Shown one piece after another: positions 2,850 through 48,474 of a stretch of 64,000 nucleotides of DNA. Position 1 is the stretch's first letter, and each line of letters opens with the position of its first letter. The stretch is from an uncultured Planctomycetales bacterium (GTDB taxonomy: Bacteria; Omnitrophota; Gorgyraeia; Zapsychrales; JAHFFX01), in NCBI GenBank assembly GCA_964372915.1, contig CAYJRN010000002.1, positions 65,409 to 129,408 on the forward strand, read 5' to 3'. Position numbers and translations under genes: made by a program. The notes under the pieces are model-generated. The model was not told the DNA's origin and did not search any database. It was given only the letters and a program-made list of their open reading frames with translations.

Positions 2850-2850
2850 A

Positions 2851-3720
2851 ATGAAGAAAAGTAACTCAGTACTATCCGCTTATATCGAATTGTCAAAACC
2901 CAGTATCTTGAACCTTATCCTGGTGACCACCGCCCTGGGATTCTTTTTAGGGGGGGAAGGCATTTCATCGTGGCCGCTTTTTTTAAATACGCTTTTGGGC
3001 GCGGCCTGTGTTTGCGCCGGAGCCTCGGCTTTGAATCATTATCTCGAGAGAGATTCTGATTGTAAAATGGTGAGGACAAGAAATAGACCCATTCCCGCGG
3101 GAATCATTTCTCCCCCGAATGCGATGAGTTACGGAATGATTATGATCCTAATCGGAGTTTTGATCTTAGTCGTCCAGGTTAATCTTTTAACCGCTTTTTT
3201 AAGTCTTCTGACGGCCTTTCTCTATGTGCTGGTCTATACCCCCATGAAAAAATTGAGCTGGCTGAATACCTCGATCGGGGCCATTCCCGGCGCCATTCCG
3301 CCGATGGGGGGATGGGCGGCCGCCACCGGCGAGCTTAACGCCGGCGCTTGGATCCTTTTTCTTATTTTATTTATTTGGCAGCATCCACATTTTTACGCCA
3401 TTGCCTGGATGTTCAAGGAGGATTACAAATCGGGGGGATTCAAAATGCTTCCCGTCGTCAAACCCGATGGCAAAGCGACCTTCGCCCAGATCAACGCATT
3501 CTCCTTACTCTTGATTCCGGTTTCTATGTTACCAACTGTCATTGGGATGTCTGGATGGTTTTATTTTTTTGGGGCATTGCTTCTAGGAATGATTCTGTGG
3601 TTGACCGGCAAATCCTTGCAGAAAAGCCGTTCTATCCTGGATGCCAGGAAACTCCTGCGCGCAACGGTTGTGTACTTACCCCTATTACTTCTTTTGATCG
3701 TCATCGACATGTCCTTTTAG
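2851..3720 (+). CDS. ctaB: Protoheme IX farnesyltransferase (heme O synthase)
   Basis: UbiA-superfamily prenyltransferase motifs (NHYLERDSD..M.RT..RPIP.G). Nine TM helices. Operon context. Confidence 0.85.
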   Translation: MKKSNSVLSAYIELSKPSILNLILVTTALGFFLGGEGISSWPLFLNTLLGAACVCAGASALNHYLERDSDCKMVRTRNRPIPAGIISPPNAMSYGMIMILIGVLILVVQVNLLTAFLSLLTAFLYVLVYTPMKKLSWLNTSIGAIPGAIPPMGGWAAATGELNAGAWILFLILFIWQHPHFYAIAWMFKEDYKSGGFKMLPVVKPDGKATFAQINAFSLLLIPVSMLPTVIGMSGWFYFFGALLLGMILWLTGKSLQKSRSILDARKLLRATVVYLPLLLLLIVIDMSF

Positions 3721-16561: not shown

Positions 16562-16667
16562 CAATAACAAGAATTCAAATATAAATAGATTTATGACGCG
16601 CCACGCTAGGTAGTAAGATGTCCATAGCGAACGTAGGCGGTCGTTATGGAGATCGGGAAGGACATAA

Positions 16668-17027
16668 TCATGATGAGCAGCGAAGAGTTAAGGCGGATAG
16701 GAATCATCAAGAAGGTGTTGGCCCAAGAGATCAATCAGCAAGAAGCGAGTGAAGTGATAGGGGTCAGTGATCGGTAAGTGAGGAGAATCGTAGCGCGGGT
16801 AAGAAAAGAAGGAGAACGAGGGGTGATACACCGGTTGCGTGGGCAAGAAGGAAACATATCGGGAATGGCTGTTCCGAGATGTTGAAGAATTAACGCAGTT
16901 TGGGCGGGCCTGCCGGCAGTTAGGAGTCGAGTTGATTTATGCGGATACCCCGCAGGCCAAAGGGCGGGTTGAACGATTGTTTGAGGCGTTTCAAGATCGG
17001 CTGGTCAAAGAGATGCGTGCAGCTTAA
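16668..17027 (+). pseudogene. Transposase remnant (ISNCY/IS481 family): N-terminal HTH with internal stop fused to a C-terminal fragment, with the DDE core deleted
   Basis: The N-terminus MMSSEELRRIGIIKKVLAQEINQQEASEVIGVSDR is followed by a TAA stop and then VRRIVARVRKEGERGVIHRLRGQEGN, which resembles the MSxxELKRxxIxxxVLEGRLTQxEAAxxLGLSxRQVRRLLKRYREEG N-termini of this family. The C-terminal fragment LGVELIYADTPQAKGRVERLFEAFQDRLVKEMR resembles the conserved integrase-like tail. Confidence 0.55.
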
Positions 17028-17077: not shown

Positions 17078-17106
17078 TTGACATTTCATCCCGAAATACT
17101 TATATT
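17078..17106 (+). promoter_or_regulatory. Sigma70-like promoter (TTGACA - 17 nt - TATATT) upstream of the guaB-like gene
   Basis: Consensus -35 with a 17-nt spacer, located just outside the IS remnant's right inverted repeat. Confidence 0.45.
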
Positions 17107-17193: not shown

Positions 17194-18354
17194 ATGGCGG
17201 AGTGGATAGGCATTGGCCGTAGGGCCAGAAGATGTTACGGTTTTGATGAGATAGCCCTTGTGCCGGGCAGGCTAACCGTTAATCCCAATGAAGTCGACGT
17301 CACCTGGAAGATTGACGGCCTCAAATTCGAAATTCCCATTCTTGCCGCAGCGATGGATGGTGTTGTGGACGTTAAGTTTGCGGCTGCCATGGGGCAGTTG
17401 GGAGGGATCGCGGTTTTAAATCTGGATGGTGTCCAAACCCGTTACGAACATCCGGATAAGGTCTTAGGCGAAATTGCCAGGGCATCCTCTGAAGAAGCCA
17501 CCAAACTCGTTCAAACTATTTATCTCCAACCGGTTAAGGAAAAACTCATCGCCAAGCGCATCAAAGAAATCAAAACAAAAAAAGTCCCCGCCGTTGTCAG
17601 TTGCATCCCTCAAAATGCCAAGAAATTCGCTGAAATTGCCCAAGACGCCGGGTGCGATATTTTCGTCGTTCAATCCACCGTCGCGACCGTCAAGCACGTT
17701 TCCAAAGAATACAAGGTTTTTGATCTACAGAAATTCTGCAAGGAAACAAAAATCCCCGTCATCATCGGCAATTGTGTGACCTACGACGTGGCCTTGGAAT
17801 TGATGGAAGCCGGCGCCTCGGGGCTTTTGGTCGGCATTGGGCCGGGCGCCGCCTGTACGACCCGCGGTGTTTTGGGCATCGGCATTCCGCAGATCACCTC
17901 GACGGTGGATTCGGCGGCAGCCAGAGATTATCATTTTAAGAAGACCGGGAAGTATATTCCTATCATCACCGATGGCGGCATGCGCATCGGTGGAGAAATC
18001 TGCAAGGCCTTTGCCGCCGGCGCTGATGCCTGCATGGTGGGTTCCGCGTTTGCCAAAGCCATCGAAGCTCCCGGAAAAGGATTTCATTGGGGCATGGCCA
18101 CCTCGCATTCCAATCTTCCTCGCGGCACCCGTATCAAAGTGGGGACGACCGGTTCCGTCAAGGAAATTCTGTTCGGTCCTGCCAAAGTGGACGACGGATC
18201 CCAGAATCTCGTCGGGGCCCTCAAAACCTCGATGGGTTCCCTGGGCGCCGCCAACATCAAAGAGATGCATGATGTCGAAATCATCATCGCGCCTTCCATT
18301 CAAACGGAAGGAAAAGTCTTTCAGGTCGGCCAGCGTGTCGGCATGGGCAAGTAG
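17194..18354 (+). CDS. guaB: IMP dehydrogenase family protein lacking the CBS subdomain
   Basis: IMPDH/GMPR TIM-barrel motifs (PILAAAMDGVVD, GGIAVL, active-site loop GIGPGAACTTR, GGMRIGGEICKAFAAGADACMVGS). 386 aa with no CBS pair. Immediately upstream of guaA. Confidence 0.75.
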   Translation: MAEWIGIGRRARRCYGFDEIALVPGRLTVNPNEVDVTWKIDGLKFEIPILAAAMDGVVDVKFAAAMGQLGGIAVLNLDGVQTRYEHPDKVLGEIARASSEEATKLVQTIYLQPVKEKLIAKRIKEIKTKKVPAVVSCIPQNAKKFAEIAQDAGCDIFVVQSTVATVKHVSKEYKVFDLQKFCKETKIPVIIGNCVTYDVALELMEAGASGLLVGIGPGAACTTRGVLGIGIPQITSTVDSAAARDYHFKKTGKYIPIITDGGMRIGGEICKAFAAGADACMVGSAFAKAIEAPGKGFHWGMATSHSNLPRGTRIKVGTTGSVKEILFGPAKVDDGSQNLVGALKTSMGSLGAANIKEMHDVEIIIAPSIQTEGKVFQVGQRVGMGK

Positions 18355-18387
18355 TTTCCCAGCCATCATCAAGAAAAGATAAAGACC

Positions 18388-20199
18388 ATGGCAAAACGAA
18401 AATTGAAGAAAAGAAAAAAGTTGGGCGGCAGGGCTTCCCGAAAGATTTTCAGAAGGGCTTCCCGAAAGACTTCCAGAAGGGCTTCCAGGAAGATTCCCAG
18501 AAAGATTTCCAAAAAGATTTTTAGAAGGATTCCCAGAAAGATTTATAGAACAGTTTCCAAGAAGAGGAGAACCGTCCGAAAGCTCCGAAAAACTTCGAGC
18601 CCGCGGCTGTGGCTCAGGTCGACGGTGACCTCGAACGCCACAACCCTCAAAGGTCCGCGCTATAAAGAGGTGGTCCTGGTTCTTGATTTCGGTTCGCAGT
18701 ACACCCAGCTCATTGCCCGTCGGGTGCGCGAAAGCAAAGTCTTCAGTAAGATCGTCCCCTACAACATCACCCCGGAACAAGTCACGGAAATAGGCGCCAA
18801 GGGCCTTATCTTTTCCGGTGGCCCGATGAGCGTCTACGATAAAGGCGCTCCCCTGCCCAACAAAGGGCTTTTCAAGCTTGGAATTCCCATTCTAGGGATT
18901 TGCTACGGTATGCAGGCCTTGACCGAGATCTATGGCGGCAAAGTGGATAAAAGCAAAGAACGGGAATTCGGCAGCGCCGAATTGTTCGTTGACAGCAACC
19001 GGGATTTGTTTGTGAATCTGCCGACCAACCTCACCTGTTGGATGAGTCACGGGGATTCCATCAAAAAACTTCCCGAAGGATTTGTTGCGATCGCCCACAC
19101 GCTCAACGCCCCCATTGCGGCGATTGCCAACCGCGCCAAGAAAATTTACGGCGTCCAATTCCATCCCGAGGTTGCTCACACGCAGCGGGGAGGCCAGATC
19201 CTAGTCAACTTTCTCTTTCAGATTTGTGGATGTCTGCCCCGCTGGACCATGGATAAATTCATCCATTCCACCATCAAGAATATGAAAGAAGTGGTGGCCC
19301 GTAAAAAAGTGGTGCTGGGGTTAAGCGGGGGAGTGGATTCTTCGGTCACGGCCATGCTCATCCAGCAGTCGCTGGGCAAACAACTGCACTGCATTTTCGT
19401 CGACAACGGTTTGCTGCGCAAAAATGAAGTGGCCTCGGTGGAGAGAACCTTCAAGGGCAACTTCAAAATGAACCTGACGGTCGTGGATGCCCAAAAAAGA
19501 TTTTTGACGCGGCTTAAAGGTGTCGAGGACCCGGAAGAGAAACGCAAAATCATCGGCGATGAGTTCATCAAAGTGTTCCAGGACACGGCCAAGAAAATCA
19601 AAAATGTTGATTTTCTGGCCCAGGGGACCTTGTATCCGGACGTCATCGAGTCTTTTTCTCCCATCGGCGGGCCTTCGGCCGTCATCAAGAGTCATCACAA
19701 CGTCGGGGGCTTGCCTAAAAACATGAAATTTAAGCTTGTCGAACCCTTGCGCGAACTTTTCAAAGATGAGGTGCGTCAGATCGGCAAAAGTTTAGGCCTC
19801 CCCGAAGCGGTCCTCAAACGTCAGCCGTTCCCGGGGCCGGGCTTGGCCATTCGCGTGATCGGCGAAGTCACCGAAGAACGCCTCAACATCTTAAGGGAGG
19901 CCGATGAGATCGTCCTCGATGAAATCAAAAAGGCCAACCTGTACCATGAGGTCTGGCAATCGTTCGCGGTGCTTTTGCCCATCAAGACCGTGGGGGTCAT
20001 GGGCGATCAGAGGACTTACGAGAACGTCATTGCCATCCGCTGTGTCAGCAGCGTCGATGGGATGACCGCCGACTGGGTCAAGTTGCCCTATGAGCTTTTA
20101 GGAAAAATGGCCAACCGCATCATCAACCAGGTCCGCGGCGTCAACCGCGTCGTCTATGATGTTAGCTCTAAACCCCCTGCGACTATAGAATGGGAATAA
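18388..20199 (+). CDS. guaA: GMP synthase (glutamine-hydrolysing) with an about 94-aa Lys/Arg-rich repeat-containing N-terminal extension
   Basis: Canonical GuaA begins at [21 protein letters not shown] (aa 95). Downstream are the GATase domain, ATP-PPase SGGVDSS motif and C-terminal dimerisation domain. There is no in-frame stop between ATG 18388 and the catalytic domain. Confidence 0.85.
18430..18549 (+). repeat. Five tandem 24-nt repeats (agaagggcttcccgaaagattttc-like) encoding (R/K)ASRKI.R octapeptides in frame with guaA
   Basis: Direct reading of the sequence: ggcttcccgaaagattttcagaa / gggcttcccgaaagacttccagaa / gggcttccaggaagattcccagaa / agatttccaaaaagatttttagaa / ggattcccagaaagatttatagaa. 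Confidence 0.8.
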
Positions 20200-46999: not shown

Positions 47000-48474
47000 T
47001 GGAAATTCTCGTTAAATCCGAAAGCTGCTCTTTGAGTGAAGCCGCTTTAAAACTTAAAAAGCTGCTAGCTTCTCTTTCGACGAACAGCTCTTTTTCTAAA
47101 GACCGCCCAATCACGCGTCTTGAGGTAAAAGTCAACAAAGAAAATATTCTCGCCTGGCTAAAACAACAAAGCCAAGGACCGAAAATTTATTGGTCCAATC
47201 GCGAAGGAACAACGGAAACAGGAGGGGTGGGAGCAGCCGATTGTGTTGTGTGCGCAAACGCCAAAGAGATTTCCTTAGGGCTTCACAAAATTAATCAAAC
47301 GCTAAAAGATGCGGCGCAATCTCTCAAATATTTTGGAGGGATGTGTTTCGATGCGAACAATTTGAACAATGAATGGAGCGAGTTTGGCCCATTCTGGTTT
47401 GTCCTGCCGCGATTTGAACTTGTTCATCAAAAAAAAGAAAGTTTTTTGGCCTGCAACCTCATTCGCAACAACATTCAGCCCTTTATTGGTCTTTTCCCAT
47501 CCAATGACACAAAGGAAGACCAATATCTCGACGATTGTTCTCTTGGAAGAACCCTCTTTAGAGGAACAATCGTCAATAATGTCGATGCCATCATGAAAGA
47601 ACTTGATCTTCTCGATTTTGAAATTTCTTCAAGTTCTTTCGATGTGGCGCACTATCAAACCCGCATCGATCATCCCAACAAAGAAGAATGGCTGACAAAA
47701 AGCGTTCAATCGCTCAAGGCCATTAAAGAAGGCGTCCTTAAGAAAGTCGTCCTGGCTAAAAAAACACAATTCCATTTTAATGATCCTATCGATCCCTGGG
47801 ACCTTGTGAGCCAGCTCAAAAACGACAAGTCCGACTGCTATCATTATTGTTTCAGCCCCAATCCTTCCGTCGCATTTTTGGGCGCTTCCCCCGAAAGATT
47901 ATACGAGCGAAAAAATCGAGAAATAAAAACCGAGGCGATCGCTGGCACTCGCCCAAGAGGTACATCGACCGTTGAAGACGAACGTTTTAAAAACGAACTT
48001 TTGACTTCCCCCAAAGAGCTCAGGGAACATCAGCTGGTTGTGGATTTTATCGAGGAGCGATTGTCTTCATTGTGCTCGGAGCTTAAATGGAACAAACGCG
48101 CATCTTTATTGCGCTTAAAAGAAGGGCAGCATCTTTACTCGGCCTGCGAAGGACTTTTGAAAGCGAATGTGAGCGACGAAGAATTGATTTTTAAACTCCA
48201 TCCCACGCCAGCGGTGAGTGGTGTTCCTCAAGAGAAGGCGCTTAAAGCCATTTGGGAAACTGAACCCTTCAGCCGCGGCTGGTACGCCGGGCCTATCGGA
48301 TGGATCGCAAACGAGGAAGCCGAATTCGCCGTGGCCATTCGTTGCGGACTGCTTCAGGGATCAAAACTTTCTCTCTTTTCCGGAGCCGGGCTTGTGGAAG
48401 GTTCAACACCCGAAAGTGAATGGGAAGAAATCGAGCATAAGTTGGGAGTTTTTTTAAAAATCTTAAAGACATGA
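46999..48474 (+). CDS. menF: Isochorismate synthase
   Basis: Chorismate-binding motifs PTPAVSGVPQEKA and GWYAGPIGWI...AIRC. Contains an in-frame copy of the family B palindrome at 47522-47579. Confidence 0.8.
   Translation: MEILVKSESCSLSEAALKLKKLLASLSTNSSFSKDRPITRLEVKVNKENILAWLKQQSQGPKIYWSNREGTTETGGVGAADCVVCANAKEISLGLHKINQTLKDAAQSLKYFGGMCFDANNLNNEWSEFGPFWFVLPRFELVHQKKESFLACNLIRNNIQPFIGLFPSNDTKEDQYLDDCSLGRTLFRGTIVNNVDAIMKELDLLDFEISSSSFDVAHYQTRIDHPNKEEWLTKSVQSLKAIKEGVLKKVVLAKKTQFHFNDPIDPWDLVSQLKNDKSDCYHYCFSPNPSVAFLGASPERLYERKNREIKTEAIAGTRPRGTSTVEDERFKNELLTSPKELREHQLVVDFIEERLSSLCSELKWNKRASLLRLKEGQHLYSACEGLLKANVSDEELIFKLHPTPAVSGVPQEKALKAIWETEPFSRGWYAGPIGWIANEEAEFAVAIRCGLLQGSKLSLFSGAGLVEGSTPESEWEEIEHKLGVFLKILKT
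47522..47579. repeat. Palindromic repeat family B, copy d, located in frame inside menF
   Basis: caatatctcgacgattgttctcttggaagaaccctctttagaggaacaatcgtcaataat encodes QYLDDCSLGRTLFRGTIVNN. It is nearly identical to the intergenic copy a at 5946-6003. Confidence 0.75.

Follow-up and report, generated by a model that had tools for sequence, protein, structure and literature searches.

The 64,000-nucleotide (nt) stretch analysed here, referred to as the window, is part of contig CAYJRN010000002.1 (assembly GCA_964372915.1) of an uncultured Omnitrophota bacterium. It harbours guaA, the gene encoding guanosine monophosphate (GMP) synthase, downstream of a guaB3-family gene. The guaA open reading frame (ORF) begins with 94 codons for a strongly basic N-terminal tail that precedes a complete enzyme. 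There is little doubt that this tail is translated and under selection. Homologous tails are found throughout a large clade of Omnitrophota, and the features of the locus are collected in Table 1.

Table 1 Features of the guaA locus in the window (aa, amino acids; GATase, glutamine amidotransferase; IMP, inosine monophosphate)
Feature	Coordinates	Strand	Basis
guaA ORF, 603 aa	18388..20199	+	ORF listing
94-codon polybasic N-terminal extension of GuaA, predicted disordered	18388..18669	+	Sequence, charge, AlphaFold2, homologues
Five in-frame 24-nt tandem units (equal to ten 12-nt units encoding [KR]-x-x-[KR])	18430..18549	+	Tandem Repeats Finder, written-out units
Two degenerate repeat-like units	18550..18597	+	Unit 6 versus the five core units: 11-13/24 identities
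Proximal junction segment, in which the conserved proximal basic motif has diverged	18598..18669	+	Right-aligned tails
GMP synthase core: GATase, PP-loop ATP pyrophosphatase and dimerisation domains	18670..20199	+	NF000848, PF00117, PF02540, PF00958
Spacer from guaB3 stop to extension ATG, 33 nt, weak purine-rich context AAAGATAAAGACC	18355..18387	+	Sequence
guaB3-family IMP-dehydrogenase-related gene, 386 aa, no CBS/Bateman insert	17194..18354	+	TIGR01304, 449 bits versus cut-off 342; PF00478
Sigma-70-like promoter candidate TTGACA-17-TATATT upstream of guaB3, possible operon promoter	17078..17106	+	11/12 consensus matches, consensus match only

The enzyme part of the protein is unambiguous in its profile matches. 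The NF000848 equivalog model for glutamine-hydrolysing GMP synthase scored 818.5 bits against a cut-off of 400, with profile positions 1-512 lying on residues 96-603, and a Pfam scan placed PF00117, PF02540 and PF00958 (the last at E 1.5e-45) on the same core. An alignment of 80 sequences showed that C172 (in GICYGMQ), H259 and E261 (in HPE) are invariant; these are the residues established for GuaA as the class-I amidotransferase catalytic triad. The PP-loop SGGVDS corresponds to S313-G314-G315-V316-D317-S318, of which five positions are invariant in this alignment while V316 is at least 90 % conserved. The canonical enzymes of E. coli (1GPM) and T. thermophilus (2YWB) likewise have the full-length core, the triad, the PP-loop and the dimerisation domain found in residues 96-603 of the window protein. 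Every defining feature of the enzyme that could be tested is thus present, and the sequence marks residues 96-603 as a bona fide GuaA, predicted to aminate xanthosine monophosphate (XMP) to GMP. Alignments with solved bacterial GuaA structures all begin at query residue 92-96, so that the 94 residues extend an enzyme that is already complete. Neither these canonical structures nor the NCBIfam model include a polybasic N-terminal tail, unlike the GuaA of the window.

A first-pass annotation of this DNA had reported that no stop codon separates ATG 18388 from the GuaA N-terminus at 18670. Indeed, the frame is open from 18388 to 20199 as a single ORF, while the other two forward frames contain 2 and 3 stops across 18388-18669. 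Taken alone, an open stretch of 94 codons is just modestly unlikely to arise by chance. The extension contains 22 Arg, 19 Lys and 1 Glu per 94 residues, with a net charge of +40, and the first 60 residues of the protein include 31 Lys/Arg and no Asp/Glu. GuaA is the only one among ~55 long ORFs of the window with a polybasic N-terminus, by which a proteome-wide habit of basic tails was ruled out within these 64 kb.

Part of the extension consists of tandem repeats. The five consecutive 24-nt units reported earlier, encoding RASRKIFR, RASRKTSR, RASRKIPR, KISKKIFR and RIPRKIYR, lie exactly at 18430-18549 and share 16-22 of 24 nt in pairwise comparison. Tandem Repeats Finder described the array as 4.8 copies of a 24-nt period (18430-18544, 78 % matches, score 123) with an underlying 12-nt period of 9.2 copies; its 48-nt row and a second 24-nt row reach 18565. 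The repeats make up only 40 of the 94 residues, so that the description of the leader as built from them applies to this segment and not to the whole. The phasing of the repeat with the reading frame, previously taken as an argument for coding, carries no weight, since a unit of 24 nt keeps the frame in any case. A search for the repeat elsewhere, made with the 12-mer TTCCMGAAAGAT in the 64-kb window and allowing at most one mismatch, gave 7 occurrences, 6 of them inside the array; over 100 shuffled sequences the mean was 1.6 and 7 was never reached. Five independent assemblies from two run series (ERR4904391-3 and ERR3478686-7) are identical to the window over the DNA of the whole gene, which rules out an assembly artefact as the source of the array. 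As to the suggested variation of copy number between strains, no variants were found among these five identical Logan assemblies, and an exact scan of metagenome contigs of the Joint Genome Institute (JGI) for the 33-mer across a unit junction gave 0 matches; strains with other copy numbers may exist.

The evidence that decides on the nature of the extension is comparative. The best 120 GuaA homologues (67-87 % identity), of which every one with a named source belongs to the Omnitrophota, were compared; P and L numbers are used below as labels of homologous proteins and loci. The comparison with related guaA genes proposed in the first-pass annotation showed that ~112 of these 120 carry an in-frame Lys/Arg-rich N-terminal extension of ~40-100 aa before the sequence [ILV]xLDFGSQ. 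These proteins are 550-604 aa long and their extensions begin with M-[AKPRV]-K-K. Over 110 distinct tails the medians are 42 % Lys plus Arg and 1.4 % Asp plus Glu, with Lys at 29 % and Arg at 11 %. The database entries P0010, P0049, P0063 and P0076 are probably truncated at the N-terminus by start-codon miscalls. For the short entries P0076 (locus L085) and P0063 (locus L086) such miscalls were recognized, as an open frame of basic composition reaches upstream to an ATG located 12-37 nt past the guaB3 stop; the extension start of L086 has the Shine-Dalgarno (SD) sequence AAAGGAAGG. The correct annotation of these genes thus has the long start. Public databases already hold these proteins, annotated simply as GMP synthase.

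Right-aligned comparison of the 120 tails revealed two parts, a distal hypervariable and a proximal conserved one. The distal part is of low complexity and is conserved only in its richness in Lys/Arg and its lack of acidic residues; in-frame slippage or duplication drives its turnover. The closest relatives, P0002 and P0003 (locus L001), with 85-87 % core identity, have an unrelated distal sequence and no DNA repeat, while L005 has a weaker 12/24-nt array. The window's tail contains 24 % Arg, compared to the median of 11 % over the homologous tails. The five 24-nt repeats are a recent, Arg-rich version of the distal tail in this lineage; as a lineage-specific remodelling they are by themselves only a detail. 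The proximal 25-40 residues are conserved within subfamilies, for example as LKTRFKVNPKKRIGRLPKLKKVRSRIAASIKVRKIRSKD, KKKPLRLRLPKGKSKFTVKITKPRHKD and RFMRAKPRKPKELKLKMHKKSALLTMKIKKQRTKE, and share the skeleton P+L+L+ ... hKh.K.R.K[DE]. The motif adjoins the first beta-strand of the amidotransferase domain, and the junction segment of the window has ATLKGPRxKEV in common with P0002. A 39-aa form of the motif has a mean column identity of 71 %; a search of 1.84 billion representative proteins with its profile gave 6 matches, all of them N-terminal GuaA fragments. The 39-aa proximal motif is exclusive to GuaA. The 94-aa tail of the window alone gave no match at E <= 1 among 5.8 billion proteins, not even to itself, probably due to composition filtering, and no significant domain was found with Pfam and NCBIfam in this tail or with Pfam in four homologous tails.

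The extension is also under purifying selection in the GuaA frame, as observed in two independent pairs of loci with the Nei-Gojobori method. For L082 versus L083 the ratio of nonsynonymous to synonymous substitution rates (dN/dS) in the extension is 0.13, with dS 0.79 and a Fisher p of 1e-5, while the core shows a dN/dS of 0.05. For L091 versus L092 the proportion of nonsynonymous differences (pN) in the extension is 0.13 against a saturated synonymous proportion (pS) of 0.88 (p 1.5e-18). The comparative evidence is decisive and marks the extension as coding. The leading option of the first-pass annotation, a genuine basic extension of GMP synthase, is borne out by the homologues and their selection as well as by SD-like motifs and a monophyletic gain of the tail, described below. 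The second option, a separately translated small basic protein, was excluded here and in the relatives by the absence of a stop.

Translation of guaA very probably starts at ATG 18388 or a few codons downstream. The sequence upstream of this ATG resembles that of other weak-SD genes of the window, such as the gene at 48471, and SD-like AAGGTG or AAGGAAGG motifs are present 5-12 nt before the extension ATG in L082, L083, L086, L091 and L092. The internal GTG 18670 had been considered a poor independent start, rightly so, as AAAGAGG overlaps the codon itself at a spacing unusable for SD pairing. Another internal codon, GTG 18625, has AGG 6-8 nt upstream.

The tail is predicted to be intrinsically disordered. 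AlphaFold2 modelling gave a predicted local distance difference test score (pLDDT) of ~35-45, below 50 nearly throughout, for residues 1-90 of the window protein (80 homologues) and residues 1-79 of P0068 (60 homologues), with confident cores in both. The models contain no secondary structure in the window tail and one 3-residue helical turn in that of P0068, a representative of the conserved motif, for which AlphaFold2 yielded no confident placement of the motif on the core. Beta-like alternation before strand 1 was seen in 2 of 3 homologous proximal motifs tested, and a strand-type hydrophobic moment within the top 3-5 % of shuffles in 2 of 4 tails tested. Over the 110 tails basic residues are spaced more evenly than in shuffles (lag-1 z = -9.3). 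A shared ++xx tetrad periodicity was ruled out (lag-4 z = -0.2).

Several physical roles of the tail could be rejected. A Sec/Tat signal peptide or anchor was ruled out, because the tail has no hydrophobic run and its longest stretch free of Lys/Arg is polar and only 10 residues long. A high helical hydrophobic moment was found only in the Pro-containing repeats of the window; an amphipathic-helix membrane anchor was ruled out on the grounds of these prolines and of the unremarkable helical moment in the homologues. The core beneath the +40 tail has a net charge of +14 and GuaB3 one of +8. As Omnitrophota GuaA cores carry a net positive charge (median +12) whether tailed or tail-less, neutralisation of an acidic core or partner was also ruled out.

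A neighbour-joining tree of GuaA cores showed that the extension-bearing enzymes are monophyletic, with L003, L004, L006, L007 and L008 as tail-less outgroups. In the outgroup Omnitrophota L003, L004, L006 and L007 the guaB3 stop and the start of guaA overlap or directly adjoin each other (ATGA, TAGATTATG, TAACAAATG), while tail-less L008 has a different upstream gene. The tail-less P0031 and P0048 are nested inside the extension clade, and in L084 guaA abuts guaB3 again (TAATATG). Orthologues starting at the VVLVLDFG position, a finding that in the first-pass annotation was to speak against a genuine extension, occur only in the outgroup Omnitrophota and in this one nested lineage of loss, and not in the sister lineages. 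The simplest reading of the tree and the gene junctions is a single gain at the former guaB3-guaA junction, at the base of a large Omnitrophota clade, followed by one secondary loss. The tail has been kept in ~95 % of the sampled lineages.

The gene neighbourhood is stable. The order guaB3-guaA-dnaE was found in all relatives, and the synteny groEL-guaB3-guaA-dnaE is conserved in relatives. In the window, a fragmented ISNCY-family transposase remnant (16646-17027, + strand) lies where the relatives have groEL upstream of guaB3; ORF 16839-17024 matches NF033594 with E 3.5e-23 (profile positions 209-256 of 368) and ORF 16778-16882 weakly matches positions 28-52 of the same profile. The linkage of groEL and guaB3 is therefore broken in this genome. 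No promoter-like or terminator-like site was found in the guaB3-guaA interval. The sole gene of the IMP dehydrogenase type adjoining guaA in the window, in L082-L086 and in L091 and L092 is the 386-aa GuaB3-family form lacking a CBS/Bateman insert. In tail-bearing lineages guaB3 and the extension are generally separated by ~7-60 nt; in the P0005/P0008 lineage, a GC-rich non-coding spacer of 176-313 nt lies between guaB3 and the extension ATG (L082 2825-3000, L083 2688-3000).

It is proposed that the tail acts as an electrostatic tether that would hold GMP synthase on a cellular polyanion. RNA/ribosomes or the nucleoid would be the likeliest targets, and polyphosphate or acidic membrane may also be considered. 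The distal part would provide non-specific charge, whereas the proximal motif may add specificity and would fold only upon binding. Such a function is inferred from composition, disorder and analogy. The reading as a whole, a translated, selected and disordered polycationic tail that tethers the enzyme, is given an even chance of being correct. A bolder version, in which the tail and its GuaA-exclusive motif form a dedicated module for localisation on ribosomes/rRNA or the nucleoid in a major Omnitrophota clade, is put forward tentatively and has an appreciable, if clearly minor, chance of holding.

Several points weigh against the tether reading. Upstream of ATG 18388 the purine-rich context is weak, and TTG 18403 was preferred as the start by one gene caller. 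The good conservation of the proximal motif favours a specific partner over generic electrostatics. The cores are net positive anyway, so that the tail has no acidic enzyme to compensate, and homologous tails do not share the tetrad periodicity seen in that of the window. Furthermore, the Arg codons of the tail are atypical: AGA, AGG and CGA account for 20 of 22, compared to 23 % in 12 reference genes of the window, which could mean a translational role or a recent origin. Similarly, all 6 Ile codons are ATT, compared to 40 % in the reference genes. Common descent of the repeat units accounts for part of this atypical share.

The strongest competitor is a specific protein contact, in which the proximal motif would regulate the activity, assembly or turnover of GuaA by docking on a partner, be it GuaB3, a second GuaA protomer, a kinase or a protease adaptor. 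Variants of this idea are a disordered site for the initiation of degradation, or a tail regulated by phosphorylation at RRAS/RKTS in this lineage. The conservation of the motif and its exclusive occurrence in GuaA fit a dedicated interface, as do the beta-like alternating pattern just before strand 1, the restriction of the tail to one gene in the window and the three RRAS sites within the window's repeats, which presumably resemble a basophilic-kinase consensus. However, AlphaFold2 docked neither motif nor tail on the core (60-80 homologues, pLDDT <50), no partner was found, and the distal 30-60 residues keep charge alone, which a specific interface does not need. In addition, guaB3 keeps its 386-aa form whether or not a lineage carries the tail. 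A protein contact is thus regarded as unlikely, though still as a serious contender.

It is distinctly less probable that the tail is translated yet functionless, a tolerated low-complexity expansion that became basic through A-rich, slippage-prone DNA and selection against harmful residues. The hypervariable distal sequence with its length of ~40-100 aa, the tandem slippage in the window and, weaker, in L005, the atypical Arg codons suggestive of young sequence, and the loss of the tail in the P0031/P0048 lineage with no obvious change in the core would all agree with this. Against it stands the retention of the tail in nearly all sampled lineages of a deep clade with core identities down to ~67 %, with pN far under pS in two pairs and a conserved proximal motif. 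Acidic residues are nearly absent, the spacing of basic residues is more regular than in shuffled sequences, and no other protein of the window has such a tail despite a common mutational background.

A translational role was considered as well, in which Lys and rare Arg codons together with A-tracts would slow ribosomes and set GuaA output relative to GuaB3. The Arg codon usage described above, the A6-A8 runs in the tails of the window, L001, L002 and L005, and the location of the tail at the site of an ancestral tight translational coupling of guaB3 and guaA are in line with such a role. It is nevertheless improbable, as the rare-codon count is inflated by the common descent of the repeat units, most homologous tails are rich in Lys and not in Arg, and neither selection on the amino acid sequence nor a peptide motif is needed by a codon-speed ramp.

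It is very improbable that the extension is untranslated here, with a start at an internal codon (GTG 18625 or GTG 18670) and 18388-18669 as an open spacer or 5' leader. Such a start would be compatible with the weak context of ATG 18388, the AGG before GTG 18625 and the limited improbability of a single 94-codon open stretch; the ~112 relatives, the dN/dS values and the SD motifs at extension starts contradict it, as do the closed other frames and the overlap of GTG 18670 with its own SD-like motif. In addition, a 315-nt non-coding gap would be atypical where the ancestral operon genes overlap or abut. Finally, the structured 5' RNA element misread as coding, the third option of the first-pass annotation, and more generally a riboswitch-like leader or a protein-binding operator array, suggested by a 12/24-nt periodicity directly upstream of a purine-biosynthesis gene, is largely refuted and retains scarcely any probability: Rfam gave no credible match for 18200-18800 at E <= 1 and nothing overlapping the extension (a eukaryotic snoRNA model, the sole listing, scored below threshold at 18245-18292 on the minus strand, inside guaB3), the minimum free energy of the extension RNA is no better than that of shuffles (z = +0.56), the closest relatives have a basic coding tail without the repeat, and the TTCCMGAAAGAT 12-mer is essentially confined to the array within the window.

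The tail can be compared with several known systems. Lys-rich disordered tails are found on nucleoid and DNA-binding proteins such as actinobacterial HupB/HupS (C-terminal tails), topoisomerase I (Lys repeats), chlamydial Hc1/Hc2 and H1-like proteins. HupS is mentioned in PMC11229371. These tails share with that of GuaA the extreme Lys/Arg content, the few acidic residues, predicted disorder and a rapid turnover in which composition is conserved, and perhaps also short tandem repeats. The H1/HU-type composition, at least ~30 % Lys plus Arg with few acidic residues, is present in the window, with 41 Lys/Arg and 1 Glu in 94 residues, and equally in the median homologue. Tetrapeptide repeats comparable to PAKK/AKKA occur as ten [KR]xx[KR] units in the window and as KKxx runs in some homologues; over the 110 tails there is no lag-4 excess. 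However, the nucleoid-protein tails sit on DNA-binding proteins, whereas the GuaA tail is N-terminal on a soluble purine enzyme and has a GuaA-specific motif; by analogy it may bind nucleic acid too.

A positively charged disordered N-terminal extension has recently been described for mycobacterial FtsK (PMC13277299). Like that of GuaA, it is a lineage-specific, long, cationic and disordered addition to a universally conserved bacterial protein, but it belongs to another protein, phylum and process (chromosome segregation/division) and shows no sequence relationship. Eukaryotic class IIb aminoacyl-tRNA synthetases (AspRS, LysRS) have Lys-rich N-terminal appended helices that add non-specific RNA affinity. 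These may offer the best functional analogy for an enzyme with a polyanion tether, although they are shorter and helical and the enzyme's substrate is RNA, while the substrates of GuaA are XMP, ATP and glutamine. Dehalococcoidia/Chloroflexota GuaA also has a clade-specific in-frame N-terminal extension of ~40-60 aa with a conserved motif; this one is opposite in charge (rich in Asp/Glu, RVATSDDLEVSTYLEIA), unrelated in sequence and from another phylum. Its motif, R(V/I)(A/T)(T/S)SDD(L/I/V)EVS(T/A)YLEIA, was found ~40-60 codons before the core, at locus position 2850-3020, in L020, L023, L032, L033, L036, L041, L043, L044, L048, L055, L065 and L078. Judged from these sequences, the acidic extension looks like a second, independent clade-specific appendage of GuaA. 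The GuaA tail is not a member by descent of any of the tail systems compared.

To our knowledge, GuaA is among the most conserved housekeeping enzymes, with an essentially invariant N-terminus in characterised bacteria. The literature searched contained no account of a GuaA with a basic tail, nor of such a tail in Omnitrophota, and a clade-wide polybasic disordered GuaA tail with a GuaA-exclusive motif has apparently not been described before. A selected tail with a charge of +20 to +40 implies that a large uncultured group of Omnitrophota uses its GMP synthase differently, possibly with respect to localisation, assembly or regulation. The tail also presents a natural case for the birth of disordered polybasic tails, with an origin at a gene junction, growth by slippage and a composition that is kept while the sequence drifts. 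It would be of greater interest if it proves to be a dedicated docking module for ribosomes, RNA or the nucleoid. In that case the supply of guanine nucleotides would be coupled to translation or nucleic-acid synthesis, or GuaA would moonlight as a nucleoid- or RNA-associated protein, and phosphorylation of the Arg/Ser-rich RRAS repeats might, in this lineage, additionally switch the charge of the tail.

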